Below are positions 3,450 through 16,878 of a DNA stretch of 16,878 nucleotides, piece by piece. Position 1 is the stretch's first letter. Each line of letters begins with the position of its first letter. Origin of the DNA: a virus; the IMG/VR virus record IMGVR_UViG_3300045988_022585; one strand, given 5' to 3'. A program made the position numbers and the translations under genes. The notes below the pieces were generated by a model, which did not search any database, was not told the DNA's origin, and worked only from the letters and a program-made list of their open reading frames with translations.

Positions 3450-4211
3450 ATGGCAAAATCTAAAAGAGGCGGACCGCCTAAAGGATGGAAACAGGCTGAG
3501 TACAACCTATTTAAGCGTCAAGTAGCGAACTACAATAAGCGAGTTAGAGCATTAAGAAAAAGGACAAGGCCAGAGCTGTTAAAATTTGCGCCAGAACCAA
3601 CGACAGTAAAAGGGCTGTTAGCAAGCCAGGGGAAAAGAGAAGCTAAGAGAACAGCTAAAGCATTAGAGCAGTTCAGAGAATCGGGTTTGAAATGGACAAT
3701 GTATCAAGGACAGCCCATGCTTAAAGCTCAGAAAGCAATTATAGAACGCAATCTAGAACGTGAAAATAAGCGGCGTAGGCAATTAGCAAAGAAGGTTAAA
3801 GAAGCACAAGCTCAAACAGGACGTTTACCAACTCAGATAGATCAAGATTTGAGAGAGGAACAATTTGAGCAGTTGACTCCGCGAAGATTAGCAGATTTAA
3901 TGAGGTTAGACTATACACCAGTTATAGATAGAAGAACAATAAATTGGAATACAAACTATATTTCACAACTAGAGGAAAACCTTCAATTCATGGAATTAAC
4001 TGGAGCCGGAACAGAAGAAGCTATGCAAATGGTAAGAGAGATTGAGCAGATGGCAACAACGATAACACCAGAAGAGTTTTATCTTGTTCAACGCTCTGTT
4101 CCTGAGATAGCTATTACAAACATTTCTGACGTTCCATATTTTATGAACAATATCGCATCTGTTCATAGAAGATGGTTACAGTTCTATGAGTCAAGAGGTT
4201 ATAGACTATAA
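3450..4211 (+). CDS. Terminal protein (protein primer for DNA replication), 253 aa
   Basis: AGGAG at 3437-3441 precedes ATG 3450. The protein is highly basic and lies immediately upstream of PolB, as phi29 gene 3 does. By eye, N-terminal KQAEYNLFKR resembles phi29 DKAEYARLVK. C-terminal ITPEEFYLVQRSVPEIAITNISD resembles phi29 IPPDDFYELFLRISEISFEEFDS. The candidate priming Ser is codon 226 (TCT, 4125-4127). Confidence 0.75.
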   Translation: MAKSKRGGPPKGWKQAEYNLFKRQVANYNKRVRALRKRTRPELLKFAPEPTTVKGLLASQGKREAKRTAKALEQFRESGLKWTMYQGQPMLKAQKAIIERNLERENKRRRQLAKKVKEAQAQTGRLPTQIDQDLREEQFEQLTPRRLADLMRLDYTPVIDRRTINWNTNYISQLEENLQFMELTGAGTEEAMQMVREIEQMATTITPEEFYLVQRSVPEIAITNISDVPYFMNNIASVHRRWLQFYESRGYRL

Positions 4212-5875
4212 TTGCTTGCGACTTTGAGACAATCGTTAACGACGAGCGTACAAGAGTCTGGGCATGGTGTGGAGTACAAGTAGAGAGTGAAAAGATTGAA
4301 TACGGGACGAAAATAGAAGACTGGCTAACATACGCATTTAGTTATGGAGAAGTTTGCTACTTTCACAACTTGAAATTCGATGGTTCTTTTATAGTAGATT
4401 TTCTATTTAGATTAGGCTATGAATGGAGTTCAAAAAGAAGGCTTGATGAAAAGACATTCACAACTCTTATCTCTGATATGGGAATGTGGTATACTATCAA
4501 GATCAGAGGCGAAGATGGGCCAGGAGGATTGAAACGAGAAGTTACAATATATGATAGTTTAAAGATCATTCCAATGCCAATCTCTCAAATGCCTAAAACG
4601 TTTGATATTGGATTAGAGAAACTAGACCTAGATTATGAAGGAGACAGAGAAGAAGGCCACGAATTAACAGACCATGAAAAGCTCTATATTAGAAATGATA
4701 CATTGATTTTGGCACGGGCTTTAAAATTCATGCGCGAGCACAACATGAAGAAGCTAACAACAGCTTCAAATGCTATGAACGATTTTAAAACCCGTTTAGG
4801 AAAAGCAGAATTTGATAGACTGTTTCCTCCGTTAGATGCAATAACTGATAGAGATATTAGAATGAGTTATAAAGGCGGTTTTACATATCTCAATCCTGTT
4901 TACAAGAATAAGCCTATTGGCAGGGGACAAGTTTATGATGTTAATTCAATGTATCCATGGGCAATGAAGTTTTGTAAACTCCCTTACGGAGAGCCTGTTT
5001 ATTTCACTGGGCAATACGAAGAGGATGAAGGTTATCCATTATACGTTCAATCCCTCGTATGTGATTTCAAATTAAAACCCGGTTGTGTACCATCAATTCA
5101 GATCAAGAATAATTTTCATTATTCAGAAACAGAATACCTAAGAGAGTCAGAAGTAGAAACCGTATTAACTTTAACAAGTGTAGACCTAAAGTTGTTTTTC
5201 GATAACTATGATGTGACCGTATATTCATGGGAAGGTGGATATAAATTTAAAGGTATGGTTGGTATGTTCGCTGACTATATCGACTATTGGTATGAACAGA
5301 AGAACGAAGGAAAGAGAACAGGAAATAAAGGTTTAACTCAGATTGCTAAGTTGATGCTTAACTCACTGTACGGGAAATTCGGTGCATCTCTTACAGGAAG
5401 ATCAAAGATTCCACAGTTTGACAGAGATCAGGATAAGGTAACATATTACTATGGAGCAGAAGAGAGCAGAACAGCCTATTATGTGCCAGTGGCATCCTTT
5501 ATAACGTCTTATGCGCGTGATAAAATCATTCGTGCGGCTCAGCAGTTGGGTGAAAGATTTATTTACGCTGACACAGACTCACTTCACGTTAAAGGAACAG
5601 AACCGGCAGATATTGATATTGACGAATACAGATTAGGAGCGTTCAAGATTGAAGAAGAATTTGACCATGCTGTTTTCATTCGTCAAAAGACTTATATGGA
5701 AAGCATAAATGGAAAGAATGACGTAAAGTGCGCAGGAATGCCTAAGAATATCAAAGAAACAGTTACATTTGATAACTTCAAAGAAGGCGCTACTTTTGAA
5801 GGCAAGTTAATGCCTAGAATAATACCAGGTGGGACAATCCTGCGAGAAACAACGTTTAAAATCAAGTCAAAATAA
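4208..5875 (+). CDS. Protein-primed family-B DNA polymerase (phi29 gp2-like); N-terminus extends upstream of the track ORF and the start codon is non-canonical or unresolved
   Basis: The frame stays open back to TAG at 4202-4204 and encodes T-I-I-A-CDFET (ExoI). Other motifs are YFHNLKFDGSF (ExoII), YIRNDTLILARAL (ExoIII), DVNSMYP (motif A), KLMLNSLYGKFG (motif B), YADTDSLH (motif C) and RQKTY / VKCAGMP. All of these closely match phi29 polymerase. Confidence 0.95.
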   Translation: MIACDFETIVNDERTRVWAWCGVQVESEKIEYGTKIEDWLTYAFSYGEVCYFHNLKFDGSFIVDFLFRLGYEWSSKRRLDEKTFTTLISDMGMWYTIKIRGEDGPGGLKREVTIYDSLKIIPMPISQMPKTFDIGLEKLDLDYEGDREEGHELTDHEKLYIRNDTLILARALKFMREHNMKKLTTASNAMNDFKTRLGKAEFDRLFPPLDAITDRDIRMSYKGGFTYLNPVYKNKPIGRGQVYDVNSMYPWAMKFCKLPYGEPVYFTGQYEEDEGYPLYVQSLVCDFKLKPGCVPSIQIKNNFHYSETEYLRESEVETVLTLTSVDLKLFFDNYDVTVYSWEGGYKFKGMVGMFADYIDYWYEQKNEGKRTGNKGLTQIAKLMLNSLYGKFGASLTGRSKIPQFDRDQDKVTYYYGAEESRTAYYVPVASFITSYARDKIIRAAQQLGERFIYADTDSLHVKGTEPADIDIDEYRLGAFKIEEEFDHAVFIRQKTYMESINGKNDVKCAGMPKNIKETVTFDNFKEGATFEGKLMPRIIPGGTILRETTFKIKSK

Positions 5876-5900: not shown

Positions 5901-5929
5901 TTGACAAGTGTTGAAAGAAGGTGTACAAT
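5901..5929 (+). promoter_or_regulatory. Near-consensus sigma-A/70 promoter (probable late promoter)
   Basis: TTGACA (5901-5906), an exact 17-nt spacer, then TACAAT (5924-5929). It sits in the polymerase-ATPase intergenic gap. Confidence 0.7.
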
Positions 5930-5935
5930 AGTAGT

Positions 5936-6046
5936 GGGGCAGTATATGGTTTTCGTTTCCACGATTCGGGAGTACAACGGCGAAGAGTCGGCCTGGATGT
6001 GACTGGGGTTTGTATCCTGTGACGCTACAACTGTATATATGCCCCG
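5936..6046 (+). ncRNA. Candidate structured RNA (pRNA-like packaging RNA or regulatory leader)
   Basis: About 100 nt downstream of the promoter have no ORF and no SD and look more GC-rich than the flanks. GGGGCA(G)TATAT (5936-5947) pairs with ATATATGCCCC (6035-6045) as a closing helix of 6+5 bp with one bulged G. Internal hairpin candidates lie at 5979-5993 and 5995-6017. The region is immediately upstream of the packaging ATPase. Confidence 0.35.
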
Positions 6047-6056
6047 CTCTAATATT

Positions 6057-7046
6057 ATGAGTAAATCAATGTATTATGACATAAACAAAACCTTGTCATA
6101 TAATACTCTATTTAATTTCGTTGTTGGTCCTCGTGGTGCAGGTAAGACTTATGCGGCAAAAAAGCGAGCTATAAGTAACTTCCTTAAAAGGGGAGAGCAA
6201 TTTGTTTATTTACGCCGCTATGATACTGAGCTTCCTTCAAACACAATTAAGAACTTCTTCGATGATGTGATGCAGGAGTTTCCAGATCATGAGTTTAAGT
6301 CAAATCTAGGTATATTCAGAATAGATGGCGCAATAGCCGGATGGTATTTTCCGCTTTCTAAAGCCACTATGATGAAATCAACTCCATTTCCCAATGTAAG
6401 CATGATAATCTTTGACGAGTTTATTATTGACGTGGGCATGGTGCATTACCTTCCTAAAGAAGTAACAGCTTTTCTTGAATGCTATTCGACTGTCAGCAGA
6501 GATCGAGACATACCAGTATTTTTCCTCTCTAATGCAATTACATTTACTAATCCATATTTTCTTTACTTTGATATAACTCTTGAAGAAGGCCAGAGACTAA
6601 AGATAAAAGGTGACATATCTTTAGAGCTTGTGGAAAATCCAGCTTATACAGATCATGTAAAGAATACGAGATTTGGCAAATTGATTGCTAATACAGAGTA
6701 CGGAAAATATAACATGGAGAACAAGTTTCTTAGAGATACGGATACCTTTATTACAAAGATGTCAAATAATTCTTTCTATGTTGCAACGCTTATTATGCAG
6801 AATCAGGAGTTTGGCATTTACCGCGATATGAAAGATGATTTAATGTTTATCTCTGAGAAGATCGACCCGACCGCTAAGAAGTTAGTATTGGACACTGATT
6901 CACATAACGGTGATACTCTACTTGTTAAAATGCGAGGAAGTGTTGTTATCAATATGCTTCTTGATTACTACACAAAAGGCAATGTTCGGTTCGAGACACA
7001 GAAAGCTAAAAATATGGCCATTGATTTGTTTAGGAGGTTAATATAA
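6057..7046 (+). CDS. DNA packaging (encapsidation) ATPase, phi29 gp16-like; start at ATG 6057 (or 6039)
   Basis: Walker A is GPRGAGKTY and Walker B is MIIFDEF. By eye there is extensive similarity to phi29 gp16 (LSYNTLFNFVVGPRGAGKTY, GEQFVYLRRY, QEFPDHEF, YPNVS-like, LSNA...NPYF). MSKSMYYD from ATG 6057 aligns with the phi29 N-terminus MDKSLFYN. Neither ATG has an SD. Confidence 0.93.
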   Translation: MSKSMYYDINKTLSYNTLFNFVVGPRGAGKTYAAKKRAISNFLKRGEQFVYLRRYDTELPSNTIKNFFDDVMQEFPDHEFKSNLGIFRIDGAIAGWYFPLSKATMMKSTPFPNVSMIIFDEFIIDVGMVHYLPKEVTAFLECYSTVSRDRDIPVFFLSNAITFTNPYFLYFDITLEEGQRLKIKGDISLELVENPAYTDHVKNTRFGKLIANTEYGKYNMENKFLRDTDTFITKMSNNSFYVATLIMQNQEFGIYRDMKDDLMFISEKIDPTAKKLVLDTDSHNGDTLLVKMRGSVVINMLLDYYTKGNVRFETQKAKNMAIDLFRRLI

Positions 7047-11164: not shown

Positions 11165-11456
11165 AACAGCTAAAAACATTTCTCTAATCGCTGGAGCGGT
11201 TGCAGTTGTTTGGAGGGTATTTACCTTTACTTCCAATATCGGTAAAAAGATTGACACTAACTCTGACGAAATCAGAGATATAAAAGAAAAGTTAAATAGA
11301 GATTATGACAAGATAGATAAGTTAAATCAAGCAGATAAGCATATTTGTCTGTTCCTGGTTGATATATCAGATCACATGATAAATGGAAATCATATAGACA
11401 AACTGAAAGAGACAAGGAAGAATGTTATCACTTTCTTATCTGAGGGGGTAGATTGA
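11130..11456 (+). CDS. N-terminally membrane-anchored coiled-coil protein (lysis accessory / antiholin-like?); start at 11130 or 11148
   Basis: A single hydrophobic segment (ISLIAGAVAVVWRVFTF) is followed by a charged helical region. The gene overlaps the holin 3' end. Its function is not recognisable. Confidence 0.5.
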   Translation: MEGIKEMEALLETAKNISLIAGAVAVVWRVFTFTSNIGKKIDTNSDEIRDIKEKLNRDYDKIDKLNQADKHICLFLVDISDHMINGNHIDKLKETRKNVITFLSEGVD

Positions 11457-12409
11457 TGTTTCCTCTTATGGATGCCTTCCCCATTCTTTCACTACCTGAT
11501 TTTAGAGTTAACACTAGCGGATTAACTAAACGGCAAACAAAGATGCTTAATACCATTCAATTTGCCGAAGTATTTTCCAGGCTAATGAATGTTATGCTTT
11601 CCAGGTTTAAATGGAATGGGCTTCCGGCGTCGTGCAATGAAAGGGCATTAGAAATTACTCTAGCATTCTACGGTTACGCATTGTTCTTTAATGACGAGAA
11701 TATCGGCTTTGCTCATACTCCTTGTACATTATCCGGCCCATTTAATATCTACTATGAGAGTGTTAATAGGCGGGCATACAGTTACAACTATGAGAAGAAC
11801 TACACGATTGATGATAGTGTGCTCATTAGGGGTAATTTAACAATGACTCCTGACTATCTCATTCTAATGAATTACGCTCCAAAGATTGCAGACGCCATTA
11901 GAGCTATTGACGTTCATACGCAGACTTTGAAAAAGCCTTATATGGTTTCTTGCGAAGAGCGTCAAAAGAACTCTGTTATTAGAGCTTTAAATGACATTGC
12001 AGACAATGAAGTAACTGTTCTGGCCGTTCCGAATTCAGGAATCAATACTTTGAGTGTTCTCACGACTGGAGTACAAAGCTACCTGGGAGATATGTGGGCG
12101 AACGTCAAGAATATGTTCAATCAGGTGTACTCCGCTTTAGGAGTAGCAAATGAGTTTACTTCCAAAAAGGAAAGACTAGTTGTAAGTGAGAGTCAGGGAG
12201 AACAAACGCCTATTAGACACTCTCTGGAAAGCGAGCTTGAATGCAGACGTAAAGCGTGCGAAGAGATTAACAAGATGTTCGGCCTTAATATTTCTGTTGA
12301 AGCAAATCAGCTTGAACAGTTTAAGGAAGAGCAGATTGAAGACCTATTGGCAAAGATGGGACAGCAGGTGGAAGGAGGGAATGAAAGTGTTTCCATGGAA
12401 TCCGATTAA
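11456..12409 (+). CDS. Portal / upper collar connector protein (phi29 gp10-like)
   Basis: GAGGGGG lies upstream, and ATG 11456 overlaps the previous stop as TGATG. [28 protein letters not shown] resembles phi29 [37 protein letters not shown]...[18 protein letters not shown] resembles KKERMVTDE...REEACEKINELYGLNVKV. Confidence 0.9.
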   Translation: [317 protein letters not shown]

Positions 12410-13457
12410 CCCTCGTAACTATGAGCTAGGCCAGCTTGTATCCACTGGCTATAAAGTCTTTGATGATACATGGAGCACCTATATTCCCGAACACAAAAGC
12501 GAGTTGTGCGCTAAGATTGTACGGCATTATTTCTTTTACGAAATTGGGCAGGATACTCCGGATAAGTTCAAGCTATATCTAAACGAAACACTTGAACGTA
12601 TCATGCCATTTTACAATCAGTTGTACAAAAGTGAGCTGATTAAGTTTGACCCCATTATGAATCATTTATTGGAGACGAATGGAAGGTCTATTGAAAATGT
12701 GCTGAGAAAAGCACAGAAGGGAGATAGCGAAGTAATTAGCGCATTAGAGAACTTCGCTAAATCCTCTAAAGGTATCACCAACTCCACACAGGGGACAAAG
12801 CAAGGTATCACAGAGCAAGAAGACTACAAGAGAGATTACACAGAAAACAAAGAGAGAACAGAGAACGAAACAACCGGAGTCAATAGGAAATTGGATGGCA
12901 CGGTCACAAGAGACGGTACAACTGATACCACGACTAATGAGACGGTTGCCGAAAATCATAACGGAGACAAGCGGTTTGCAGACACGCCGCAAACTACCGT
13001 TGGGGATAATCCAAATAACGCCTATATGACGAACTTCACAAAGGAGAGTCAAACCAGAGATACCACAACGAATGCAACATCTAACAGTACAATCCACCAA
13101 ACAGACGAAACAGACGAGACGGAAACAACTGATACTGACCGTAAATTAAATGGAACAGAAGATACGGTTGGAAATATCACTGATGAACGAACCAAAACTT
13201 CACAGCTCAATAGAGATGTTGATACAAAAGCTACTAATGATGGATTTGAGAACGGTTCTAGTAGCCAGGATACAAGCAAGGCAAAACAGACTCTTGAAGA
13301 CGAGTCTCAGACAACTGATGAAGGAAAGCATGAAATCATTTCCGGATTTATGAATATGACTCCATCTCAGCTTTTGCAAGGTTTCCGTGAAACATTCCTG
13401 AACATTGACGAACAAATCATTAAAGAGCTTCAATACAATTTCATGGAGGTATTTTAA
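12381..13457 (+). CDS. Lower collar protein (phi29 gp11-like) with a long Thr/Asp/Glu/Asn-rich central region; start at ATG 12381 or GTG 12387
   Basis: AGGAGG at 12373-12378 precedes the start. The gene follows the portal, as gene 11 does in phi29. N-terminal segments are NPRNYELGQL..FDDTWSTYIPEHK..IVRHYFFYEIGQDTPDKF..IMPFYNQLYKSE, and there is an RFADTPQ motif. The track start at 12186 would overlap the portal by more than 200 nt. Confidence 0.7.
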   Translation: MKVFPWNPINPRNYELGQLVSTGYKVFDDTWSTYIPEHKSELCAKIVRHYFFYEIGQDTPDKFKLYLNETLERIMPFYNQLYKSELIKFDPIMNHLLETNGRSIENVLRKAQKGDSEVISALENFAKSSKGITNSTQGTKQGITEQEDYKRDYTENKERTENETTGVNRKLDGTVTRDGTTDTTTNETVAENHNGDKRFADTPQTTVGDNPNNAYMTNFTKESQTRDTTTNATSNSTIHQTDETDETETTDTDRKLNGTEDTVGNITDERTKTSQLNRDVDTKATNDGFENGSSSQDTSKAKQTLEDESQTTDEGKHEIISGFMNMTPSQLLQGFRETFLNIDEQIIKELQYNFMEVF

Positions 13458-16744: not shown

Positions 16745-16783
16745 TATAACACTGTTATATAACACTGTTATATAACAGTGTTA
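16745..16783. repeat. Three 13-bp-spaced palindromic boxes AACA(C/G)TGTT (operator-like array) next to the right ITR
   Basis: The units are TATAACACTGTTA (16745-16757), TATAACACTGTTA (16758-16770) and TATAACAGTGTTA (16771-16783). Positions 16761-16782 form a perfect 22-bp palindrome. Confidence 0.9.
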
Positions 16784-16844
16784 TCTGTAACATAGGTGGA
16801 GTGACATTTTAAATGCTTCTGCGAGAAGGGTTAATAAAGCGTCC

Positions 16845-16878
16845 AGTATTTTTATGTAGGCGTGTGTACATATACCTC
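16845..16878. repeat. Right inverted terminal repeat (34 bp)
   Basis: It is the exact reverse complement of 1-34. Confidence 0.95.

Follow-up and report, generated by a model that had tools for sequence, protein, structure and literature searches.

The window, by which we mean the whole 16,878-nt stretch of viral DNA analysed here, is the complete genome, bounded by perfect 34-nt inverted terminal repeats, of a small gut phage whose polymerase is abundant. An SSB gene (phrog_6243), a terminal protein (TP) gene and a DNA polymerase gene follow one another in it, with the TP gene in the middle. One of the claims made in an earlier reading of the letters alone (hereafter, the sequence-only reading), namely that the open reading frame upstream of the polymerase encodes a TP, holds, and the protein is of the phi29 type. 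Taken as a single sequence, the TP has no match in PHROG or PDB; the match came only with the profile of its ORF family, which aligned with the phi29 TP at an hhalign probability of 98.9% (E = 2.1e-17, 210 columns) and with PDB entry 2ex3_B, 'DNA terminal protein', at E = 3.4e-16. The polymerase, in turn, matches phrog_1907 along residues 2-554 (E = 9e-152), and PF03175 is precomputed for all of its homologues. In its translation one can read DFET, HNLKFDG, YIRND, DVNSMYP, KLMLNSLYGKFG and YADTDS, corresponding to ExoI/II/III and motifs A, B and C, and the D, F, E and T of ExoI are nearly invariant among 22 homologues.

The features of the TP-polymerase junction are collected in Table 1. It had been pointed out in the sequence-only reading that the polymerase gene has no canonical start codon ahead of its ExoI motif, and this is indeed the case, with every coordinate matching the sequence. 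Namely, past the TAG that closes it, the polymerase frame reads ACT (4205), ATA (4208), ATT (4211), GCT, TGC, GAC (4220), TTT, GAG, ACA, or T I I A C D F E T, and between this TAG and the Asp codon at 4220 the window sequence contains no ATG, GTG or TTG. In an ORF scan of the window, the earliest in-frame codon of this kind in the polymerase is the TTG at 4370, which lies 55 codons into the open frame and 50 codons past the ExoI Asp. One clade variant, L010, carries TAC in place of the TAG, and its frame is open back to a TGA at 4187-4189; the extra open stretch adds no ATG, GTG or TTG. The remaining details of the earlier description also agree with the sequence: the SD-like AAGAGGT lies 8 nt from ATA and 11 nt from ATT, and the TP stop shares 2 nt with ATA (ATAA) and 1 nt with ATT.

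Table 1. Features of the TP-polymerase junction, in window coordinates
Feature	Position (strand)	Description	Basis
TP gene	3450..4211 (+)	253 aa; stop TAA 4209-4211	ORF list
Polymerase gene, proposed extent	4208..5875 (+)	PF03175, phrog_1907	
SD-like AAGAGGT within TP 3' end	4193..4199 (+)	anti-SD duplex -7.0 kcal/mol	
TAG closing the polymerase frame upstream	4202..4204 (+)		read from sequence
ATA, proposed polymerase start	4208..4210 (+)	AUAA overlap with TP stop	comparative
ATT	4211..4213 (+)	codon 2 (Ile) if the start is ATA, else alternative start	
ExoI codons GAC TTT GAG (D-F-E)	4220..4228 (+)		translation; homologue alignment
TTG, false start of gene callers	4370..4372 (+)	501-aa product	
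Out-of-frame mini-ORF (MSQEVIDYNCLRL, then stop)	4186..4227 (+)	ends CTT TGA; judged non-functional	

Reproducibility of the junction

A missing start codon may simply reflect a sequencing or assembly indel, as the sequence-only reading had allowed, and this explanation is refuted by the available assemblies. We compared 25 of them, comprising the window, GenBank MT835826, three JGI, one Logan and 10 IMG/VR sequences, and nine ENA or other metagenome contigs; together they form a species-level clade drawn from many projects, and several of the contigs are, like the window, approximately 17 kb long. All 25 contain TATAATTG and have a junction of equal length with identical frame structure, ATA ATT is unchanged in every one, and neither an indel nor an ATG variant at the junction was found among these 25 assemblies, which represent 24 distinct TP-polymerase sequences. 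What is more, a pattern search of IMG/VR and of a metagenome collection, in which a gap of 10-18 nt was permitted between TCAAGAGGTTAT and TGYGAY, returned 19 contigs with a gap of exactly 14 nt each, again with TATAATTG invariant. It had also been considered that relatives might all carry an ATG at this position, which would point to an error specific to this one assembly. An ATG of this kind is seen only in relatives at 69% protein identity or less, which indicates an evolved state of the clade rather than the error of a single assembly. On the evidence of these comparisons, the ATA junction is a conserved, evolved feature of the clade and not an assembly error.

Choice between ATA and ATT

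Initiation at AUA or AUU, one of the possibilities listed in the sequence-only reading, gains support from comparison with relatives, and positional homology together with typical SD spacing narrows it to the ATA at 4208. In particular, where the window has ATA, 12 nt ahead of the Asp, the closest of the other lineages carry ATG (L091), GTG (L092) or TTG (L006 and L095/L017). The start of L006 reads TTG ATA GCG GCG GAC, and its Ile codon 2 (ATA) aligns with the ATT of the window. As measured by the scoring script, ATA has an SD spacer of 7, with most SD-bearing genes of the window falling between 5 and 8, and ATT has one of 10, above every SD-bearing gene in the window.

Sequence variation within the clade sets a further boundary. 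Sites 4204-4206, just before ATA, vary, and two of the three changes, synonymous in TP, would be T/I/A replacements if read in the polymerase frame; this variation argues that the polymerase starts at or after 4208. The AAGAGGT, on the other side, is unchanged across 16 clade members gathered through protein or DNA similarity, and the 45 nt upstream (4159-4203) are invariant in 16 sequences against a background of 15% variable sites (P = 6e-4). That said, the SD, which has the strength of GAGGU, lies within the TP coding sequence, and this provides a second explanation for its conservation. The SD sites of the nearest lineages L006, L092 and L095 are poor or misplaced. As for the two candidate codons themselves, neither varies and the TP stop partly fixes each of them, so that conservation does not tell them apart.

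Would our conclusions be different if ATT were the codon in use? An AUU start at 4211-4213, as in infC, could arise de novo or by reinitiation after the TAA (TAAUU), would give M-A-C-D-F-E-T, and might even operate alongside AUA. Besides being invariant in 25 of 25 assemblies, the ATT would yield an N-terminus like that of homologue P0010 (MAADFET), which likewise has just two residues before the Asp; in E. coli, AUU, the start of infC and pcnB, is the sole non-canonical start to have been confirmed (10.1101/063800), and the 1-nt TAAUU overlap resembles the known TAATG/TGATG coupling junctions (PMC6728339). However, in addition to requiring a spacer longer than that of any SD-bearing gene in the window, this start would depart from the four nearest lineages, which all begin one codon earlier and of which L006 has Ile as codon 2 at the ATT position. 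Moreover, both candidate positions are taken by ATA rather than ATT in L094, which likewise lacks a canonical start. We consider an AUU start unlikely for these reasons, and it is our belief that the polymerase is probably translated from the near-cognate AUA at 4208, with the assistance of the SD and of coupling to TP.

Frameshifting, fusion and truncation

The evidence speaks against explanations that place the start elsewhere or that dispense with a functional gene, namely frameshifting, a fusion protein, a truncated enzyme or a pseudogene. In the first of these, translation would begin at the out-of-frame ATG at 4186 (MSQEVIDYNC...) and reach the polymerase by a programmed +1 frameshift, or else a 4-nt duplication, visible as the TTGCTTGC tandem at 4212-4219, would have disrupted a gene that once started at ATG. 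Without one TTGC copy, the sequence would indeed run ATG...AAT TGC GAC TTT GAG and encode the phi29-like M-S-Q-E-V-I-D-Y-N-C-D-F-E-T, and the end of the mini-ORF, CTT TGA G, resembles the prfB shift site. However, a shift at CUU UGA (CTT TGA 4222-4227, the only prfB-like site) would skip the ExoI Asp codon, +1 re-pairing is impossible at any codon in 4205-4219, and no slippery site was found before the Asp codon. Furthermore, the ATG is replaced by ACG in L107 and L108 with the remaining junction unchanged, most assemblies have CTGC in place of the second TTGC, meaning that the tandem is not conserved, and the N-termini of relatives are short (M-x-A-A/C-D), unlike that of phi29. With junction length being equal in every assembly as well, we regard both forms of this explanation as highly improbable.

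A TP-polymerase fusion, which would require a -1 shift within the final two codons of TP or some other recoding at the TP stop, is no more credible. Relative to TP, the polymerase lies in the -1 frame, which is open from 4205, and the TP stop at 4209 leaves a 2-codon window for such a shift; yet an X XXY YYZ heptamer is absent in 4203-4211, and the AGA and CUA tRNAs would be unable to re-pair at UAG and ACU in the -1 frame. In the family as a whole, junction geometries are varied and include gaps with stops in all frames, the gap in phi29 being 22 nt, and a fusion is consequently not a family trait. Another argument against it comes from phi29 biology, in which the TP must be a free primer and ends covalently attached to DNA.

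One could also take the gene callers at their word and assume that TTG 4370 opens a 501-aa polymerase devoid of ExoI, or regard the gene as decaying in a defective phage. The former is how all database entries (P0001, P0002) are annotated. However, within the ExoII motif HN-L-KFDG the conserved Leu is encoded by this very TTG, which has no SD (-1.7 kcal/mol), and the sequence upstream of it behaves as coding. Namely, variable sites in 4220-4369 are distributed over codon positions 1/2/3 as 3/5/17 within the clade (P = 4e-4), and this predominance of third positions argues that the 50 codons before TTG 4370 are translated; at least 60% of these codons are alignable to relatives, from residue 1-4. 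The rest of the gene (4370-5872) shows 193 synonymous and 46 nonsynonymous substitutions within the clade. A decaying gene, moreover, sits poorly with a clade found in 25 assemblies from many projects and with a window that is a complete genome, and we find it exceedingly hard to maintain either form of this reading.

The truncated annotation has practical consequences. In a database of 5.8 billion proteins we found two clusters of 98-99% identical sequences, with 164 and 472 members, in both of which the proteins are 501 aa long and start at the equivalent of TTG 4370; no full-length polymerase above 70% identity was found in that database. Since gene callers accept only ATG, GTG and TTG, the database copies (more than 600 members in the two clusters) are 501 aa long and come without ExoI. 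Anyone mining such entries for phi29-like amplification polymerases would clone a dead fragment.

Two further candidates were rejected. Stop-codon recoding fails, as readthrough of the TAG at 4202 reaches only the TGA at 4187 with no start between them, and every other gene reads intact with table 11. A perfect -10 hexamer, TATAAT, stretches over the junction at 4207-4212; as an internal promoter it lacks an acceptable -35 or TG extension, a scan gave no + strand promoter there, and a leaderless mRNA made from it would require a 5' AUG.

Start-stop overlap and relation to known systems

The TP and polymerase genes are co-directional, and the ATAA at 4208-4211 has the same -4 geometry as the ATGA, TTGA and CTGA of relatives. 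A 4-nt start-stop overlap of this kind, with ATG, TTG, CTG or ATA, is present in 18 of 69 distinct family junctions. Among 93 distinct junctions, a canonical start is absent in only three lineages, and in each of these a near-cognate codon falls precisely within the 4-nt overlap, which is ATAA in the window clade as well as in L094, and CTGA in L088. In L094, a CTG with GGAGG 4 nt upstream offers an alternative to its ATA, and this second ATAA lineage is ambiguous; a search of IMG/VR yielded no further members of it. Given the ATAA overlap and the -4 overlaps of relatives, coupling to TP termination, which the sequence-only reading had also raised, is supported comparatively, and it is compatible with an AUA start.

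In the mechanism that we favour, ribosomes terminating on TP would be released straight onto the polymerase start via AUAA, and both SD-guided binding and termination-reinitiation would feed the weak AUA codon. The initiator tRNA would read AUA 4208-4210 as fMet, giving the N-terminus M-I-A-C-D-F-E-T. As to its origin, an ancestral ATGA could have turned into ATAA by one G-to-A transition, whereby TGA would become TAA, keeping the TP stop, and ATG would become ATA. The expected polymerase output would be low and TP-coupled, and such low output would suit a catalytic enzyme, the primer protein TP being consumed once per new DNA strand. In other words, we infer that AUA rather than AUU is the codon in use, that coupling contributes to initiation and that little polymerase is made. 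An SD-masking RNA hairpin, by comparison, is unsupported by the folds of 4150-4215 (z = -0.67) and 4150-4260 (z = -1.29), and nothing comparable to a masking structure was found in L006, L091, L092 and L095.

A bolder proposal, possible if rather doubtful, is that AUAA here, together with CUGA and the second AUAA elsewhere, is a selected device rather than a mutation that is simply tolerated, and that it reserves polymerase synthesis almost entirely for ribosomes coming directly from the end of TP. Namely, a ribosome or subunit that reinitiates while still bound to the mRNA might escape the normal start-codon proofreading of IF3, and this escape would hard-wire a low, fixed polymerase-to-TP ratio. 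If true, the repeated loss of canonical starts within the 4-nt overlap would represent a general phage route to setting the stoichiometry between an enzyme and its substrate protein.

How much initiation can one expect from AUA? In E. coli reporters it amounts to 1-2% of that from AUG (bioRxiv 10.1101/063800); an AUG-to-AUA mutant of T4 rIIB retains a residual expression of about 15%, a phage HB-3 hydrolase construct with AUA gave 7.5%, and in an optimised initiation region AUA showed AUG-like activity in vitro (PMC5499595). Few natural non-canonical starts are confirmed at all; in E. coli they number two, infC and pcnB, both of them AUU (10.1101/063800), and in the literature on near-cognate initiation (10.1101/063800; PMC5499595) we found no confirmed natural AUA start. 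With infC and pcnB the polymerase shares a conserved open reading frame whose sole possible start is an AUN behind an SD, the codon being kept among relatives, and a low efficiency of initiation is to be expected, as for their AUU and for the AUG-to-AUA mutants (10.1101/063800; PMC5499595). Unlike them, it would use AUA, encodes an essential phage replication enzyme and is fused to an upstream stop (AUAA); unlike in infC, autoregulatory logic of the IF3 type is not evident in the phage junction. As far as sequence comparison goes, the marks of a near-cognate start are present, namely conserved coding sequence upstream, an SD-placed codon at the position where homologues start and a reproducible state. 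What we describe is most likely a rare natural AUA start operating by a type of mechanism that is already known.

In a similar vein, the junction is a variant of the start-stop coupling arrangement and not a textbook member of it, with coupling itself suggested by the layout of the genes. As in ATGA coupling (Huber et al. 2019, PMC6728339), the partners are co-directional and heteromeric (the TP-polymerase heterodimer), stop and start share nucleotides and the SD lies in the upstream gene. Unlike in the coupling described there, where starts are ATG, GTG or TTG (PMC6728339), the start would be a near-cognate AUA, and the stop is TAA instead of TGA. An AUA start that is conserved population-wide on an essential replication gene and fused to the stop of its partner would make a clean natural test case, one that could reveal how weak starts and start-stop overlaps jointly set protein ratios. 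For direct comparison, the family supplies ATG, GTG, TTG, CTG and ATA versions of one and the same junction.

Finally, a related arrangement is known from genes 3 (TP) and 2 (polymerase) of Bacillus phage phi29, with which the window shares the order SSB, TP, polymerase, homologous TP and polymerase proteins, and inverted terminal repeats; start codons go unmentioned in a review of phi29-like phages (PMC11476376). The 22 nt noted above lie between the two genes in phi29, whose polymerase starts at an ATG of its own and has a lead of 11 residues before D12. Here, unlike in phi29, TP and polymerase overlap, the lead is 3 residues long and the start is non-canonical, and the replication genes are co-oriented with the structural genes.

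A polymerase frame without a canonical start

The window ends in perfect inverted terminal repeats and therefore represents the complete linear genome of a phi29-like phage with protein-primed replication (G+C 40.8%). Its family B DNA polymerase is an unbroken translation in which all motifs are found, namely DFET (ExoI), HNLKFDG (ExoII), YIRND (ExoIII), DVNSMYP, KLMLNSLYGKFG and YADTDS, and which matches phrog_1907 over residues 2-554 (E = 9e-152); PF03175 is present in its homologues. The upstream ORF has no PHROG or PDB sequence match as a single sequence, and a 30-member alignment of the same-position ORFs in relatives matches the phi29 terminal protein (TP; hhalign probability 98.9%, E = 2.1e-17) and PDB 2ex3_B, "DNA terminal protein" (hmmsearch E = 3.4e-16). 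The adjoining genes encode a phi29-type SSB (phrog_6243) and a packaging ATPase (phrog_2150).

At the TP-polymerase junction (4186-4233, ATGAGTCAAGAGGTTATAGACTATAATTGCTTGCGACTTTGAGACAAT), the polymerase frame is closed by TAG and then reads ACT ATA ATT GCT TGC GAC TTT GAG ACA. The sequence-only reading, which had noticed that no canonical start precedes ExoI, was right in this and in all its coordinates, which we rechecked against the window sequence, the mechanical ORF list and the translation. A sequencing indel, which it had offered as one explanation, can be dismissed, since 25 assemblies share the junction and a pattern search found 14-nt gaps only. Namely, when a gap of 10-18 nt was permitted between TCAAGAGGTTAT and TGYGAYTTTGARAC, the matches were ten IMG/VR contigs with the same junction and nine further metagenome contigs, in all of which the gap is exactly 14 nt and TATAATTG is invariant. 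Three JGI contigs and one Logan contig carry the same junction, as does GenBank MT835826 (human faeces, Mexico; 97.8% identical) except for one substitution, T4216C, synonymous in the polymerase frame. ATG, GTG and TTG are absent before ExoI throughout the 25 assemblies of this species-level clade (24 distinct sequences over the TP-polymerase region).

The consequence for annotation is that every database copy of the window polymerase is truncated. In the protein database, the two clusters of 98-99% identity, with 164 and 472 member sequences, are both 501 aa long and start LKFDG, and the best full-length database protein is only 69% identical. A 720-aa database protein, P0019, from a 2982-bp ENA contig, matches the C-terminal 56% of the polymerase at 99% identity, with the final ~20 polymerase residues replaced by unrelated low-complexity sequence; a frameshift or a chimera in the assembly is the probable cause.

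Coordinates of the features discussed
Feature	Position (strand)	Details
Inverted terminal repeats	1-34, 16845-16878	perfect, 34 nt
Pistol ribozyme match, Rfam RF02679	851-926 (+)	full model 1-68; 53.3 bits, gathering score 34.5; E = 1.8e-7
TP gene	3450-4211	253 aa; stop TAA 4209-4211 (mechanical ORF list)
AAGAGGT	4193-4199	
TAG in polymerase frame	4202-4204	
Polymerase translation	4205-5875	556 residues
TATAAT	4207-4212 (+)	perfect -10 hexamer, coincides with AUA/UAA/AUU junction
Candidate polymerase starts	4208, 4211	ATA, ATT
Earliest ATG/GTG/TTG in polymerase frame	4370	TTG (mechanical ORF list)
Promoter-like site	5901-5929 (+)	TTGACA-17-TACAAT
Predicted multi-branch fold	5934-6047	-41.4 kcal/mol, z = -2.0
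Packaging ATPase ORF	6039-7046 (+)	in-frame ATGs 6039, 6057, 6069
ORF	11453-12409 (+)	318 aa, TTG
ORF	12186-13457 (+)	423 aa, GTG
Inverted repeat near right end	16746-16784	perfect, 19 nt, 1-nt spacer

Position of the polymerase start

In 16 clade sequences, the variable sites of 4220-4369 fall 3/5/17 on polymerase codon positions 1/2/3 (binomial P = 4e-4), a pattern absent from the other two frames. Synonymous changes number 17 in this segment and nonsynonymous ones 10; the remainder of the gene has 193 and 46. Because this segment varies as coding sequence, and because no Shine-Dalgarno (SD) site precedes TTG 4370, which is the codon of a conserved Leu within ExoII, the start must lie between 4205 and 4219.

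In the DNA of the nearest four other lineages, the polymerase start always lies 12 nt ahead of the Asp codon, where the window has ATA ATT GCT TGC GAC: L091 (69% protein identity) reads ATG GTA GCG GCG GAC, L092 (66%) GTG TAT GCT TGT GAC, L006 (69%) TTG ATA GCG GCG GAC, and L095/L017 (67-68%) TTG CGG GCG GCT GAT. ATA 4208 thus occupies the homologous start position. By the same duplex measure by which most window genes have GGAGG-type SD sites with spacers of 5-8, its SD scores -7.0 kcal/mol with a spacer of 7. Within the clade, the variable sites just 5' of ATA are 4204, 4205 and 4206; changes at the latter two are synonymous in TP (AGA/AGG, CTA/TTA) and would be Thr/Ala/Ile replacements in the polymerase frame, which is compatible with polymerase coding from 4208 or later. 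The AUA/AUU initiation offered earlier stands on the homologous position and on the spacer, and the polymerase most likely starts at AUA 4208. Initiation at AUU 4211 is the main alternative, and a rather improbable one: ATT aligns with Ile codon 2 of L006 and has an SD spacer of 10. Conservation does not separate the two codons, since both are invariant and 4209-4211 is also the TP stop.

Other routes into the frame were rejected. A mini-ORF from ATG 4186 would need a +1 shift before 4220, where no codon re-pairs; its prfB-like CUU UGA lies 3' of the Asp codon, the ATG is ACG in loci L107 and L108, and most assemblies read CTGC in place of the second TTGC of the TTGC-TTGC tandem. A -1 frameshift fusion with TP lacks a slippery site, and the geometry of the junction differs between family members; read-through of TAG 4202 leads to TGA 4187 with no start in between.

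The junction across the family and a proposed mechanism

We surveyed the junction in every collected locus (93 distinct contexts). A canonical start precedes ExoI in 82, the one nearest Asp being ATG in 65, GTG in 11 and TTG in 6. A 4-nt start-stop overlap, in which bases 1-2 of the TP stop double as bases 2-3 of the start, is found in 18 of 69 distinct junctions: ATGA (L018/19, L049, L053/54/56, L074, L083, L084), TTGA (L006), CTGA (L088) and ATAA (window clade, L094). Only three lineages have no canonical start, namely the window clade, L094 and L088, and each time a near-cognate codon sits exactly in the 4-nt overlap. L094 (59% identical; its 1321-1401) has 24 open codons with no ATG, GTG or TTG and reads AGG ATA ATA TAT GCC TGC GAT, the first ATA being overlapped by TAA; an alternative start is a CTG 4 nt after GGAGG. 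The 66 nt up to its junction fold unusually well (z = -3.1). In L088 (1489-1510), CTGA takes the place of the ATGA of L049 and L084. The simplest origin of ATAA would be one G-to-A transition in ATGA, which keeps the TP stop (TGA to TAA) and converts ATG to ATA. Phi29, in contrast, has an ordinary polymerase ATG and a 22-nt TP-polymerase gap.

Two of the three bases of AUA pair with the initiator anticodon. As measured with E. coli reporters, initiation at AUA, AUU, AUC and CUG is about 1-2% of that at AUG (0.02-3% in other constructs), and the confirmed natural near-cognate starts in E. coli are infC and pcnB only, both AUU (bioRxiv 10.1101/063800). An AUG-to-AUA mutant of T4 rIIB retained ~15% of translation, the values for a hydrolase construct of phage HB-3 were 7.5% (AUA) and 5% (AUU or AUC), and AUA was AUG-like in vitro within an optimised initiation region (PMC5499595). 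Stop-start overlaps (ATGA, TGATG) couple translation through termination-reinitiation, and for most such pairs an SD site lies inside the upstream gene (PMC6728339). Since near-cognate AUA initiation and overlap coupling with an internal SD are both reported, we propose initiation at AUA 4208, which would draw on ribosomes terminating at UAA 4209-4211 and on SD-bound 30S subunits, and would yield little polymerase, in an amount tied to TP. TP-coupled reinitiation, suggested earlier, stands as a proposed explanation given the ATAA overlap. The window polymerase would be a rare natural case, with a mechanism of known kinds (near-cognate initiation, start-stop overlap coupling). In phi29, one TP is consumed per new DNA strand and the polymerase recycles; a small TP-linked output would fit this biology.

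The 45 nt at 4159-4203, before the junction, contain no variable site in 16 sequences gathered independently of this stretch, against a background of 15% (P = 6e-4), and none of 15 third positions varies (P = 0.003); with 24 distinct sequences, a single variable site, 4187, appears. This invariance hints at an extra constraint, for example an initiation region. RNA structure as its explanation found no support (fold z = -0.7 and -1.3). A promoter at the TATAAT was rejected, as there is no usable -35 and no TG extension, and the promoter scan calls none there.

Other features of the window

The Pistol match spans the end of ORF 665-874 and precedes the SD and ATG of ORF 960-1241, in the early-gene block. 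Just 3' of the polymerase stop lies a strong promoter-like site, and in the ~112 nt after it the 5' and 3' ends pair in an ~18-bp helix closing the predicted fold. At the same place, L006, L091 and L017 have a -10-like box, and their hairpins are conserved and show compensatory changes; of 28 predicted pairs, 17 differ on both sides in one or more sequences. The region (5901-6047) has no credible Rfam match and is a candidate gene for packaging RNA (pRNA), with the packaging ATPase immediately 3' of it. None of the ATPase's in-frame ATGs has a recognisable SD; ATG 6039 would fall within the candidate pRNA, and gene callers start the ATPases of close relatives at the equivalents of 6057 or 6069 (329 and 325 aa). 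Finally, the two ORFs from 11453 and 12186 overlap by ~220 nt in the mechanical list; since the SD of GTG 12186 is weak and its spacer is 13, the second gene probably has its true start further 3'.
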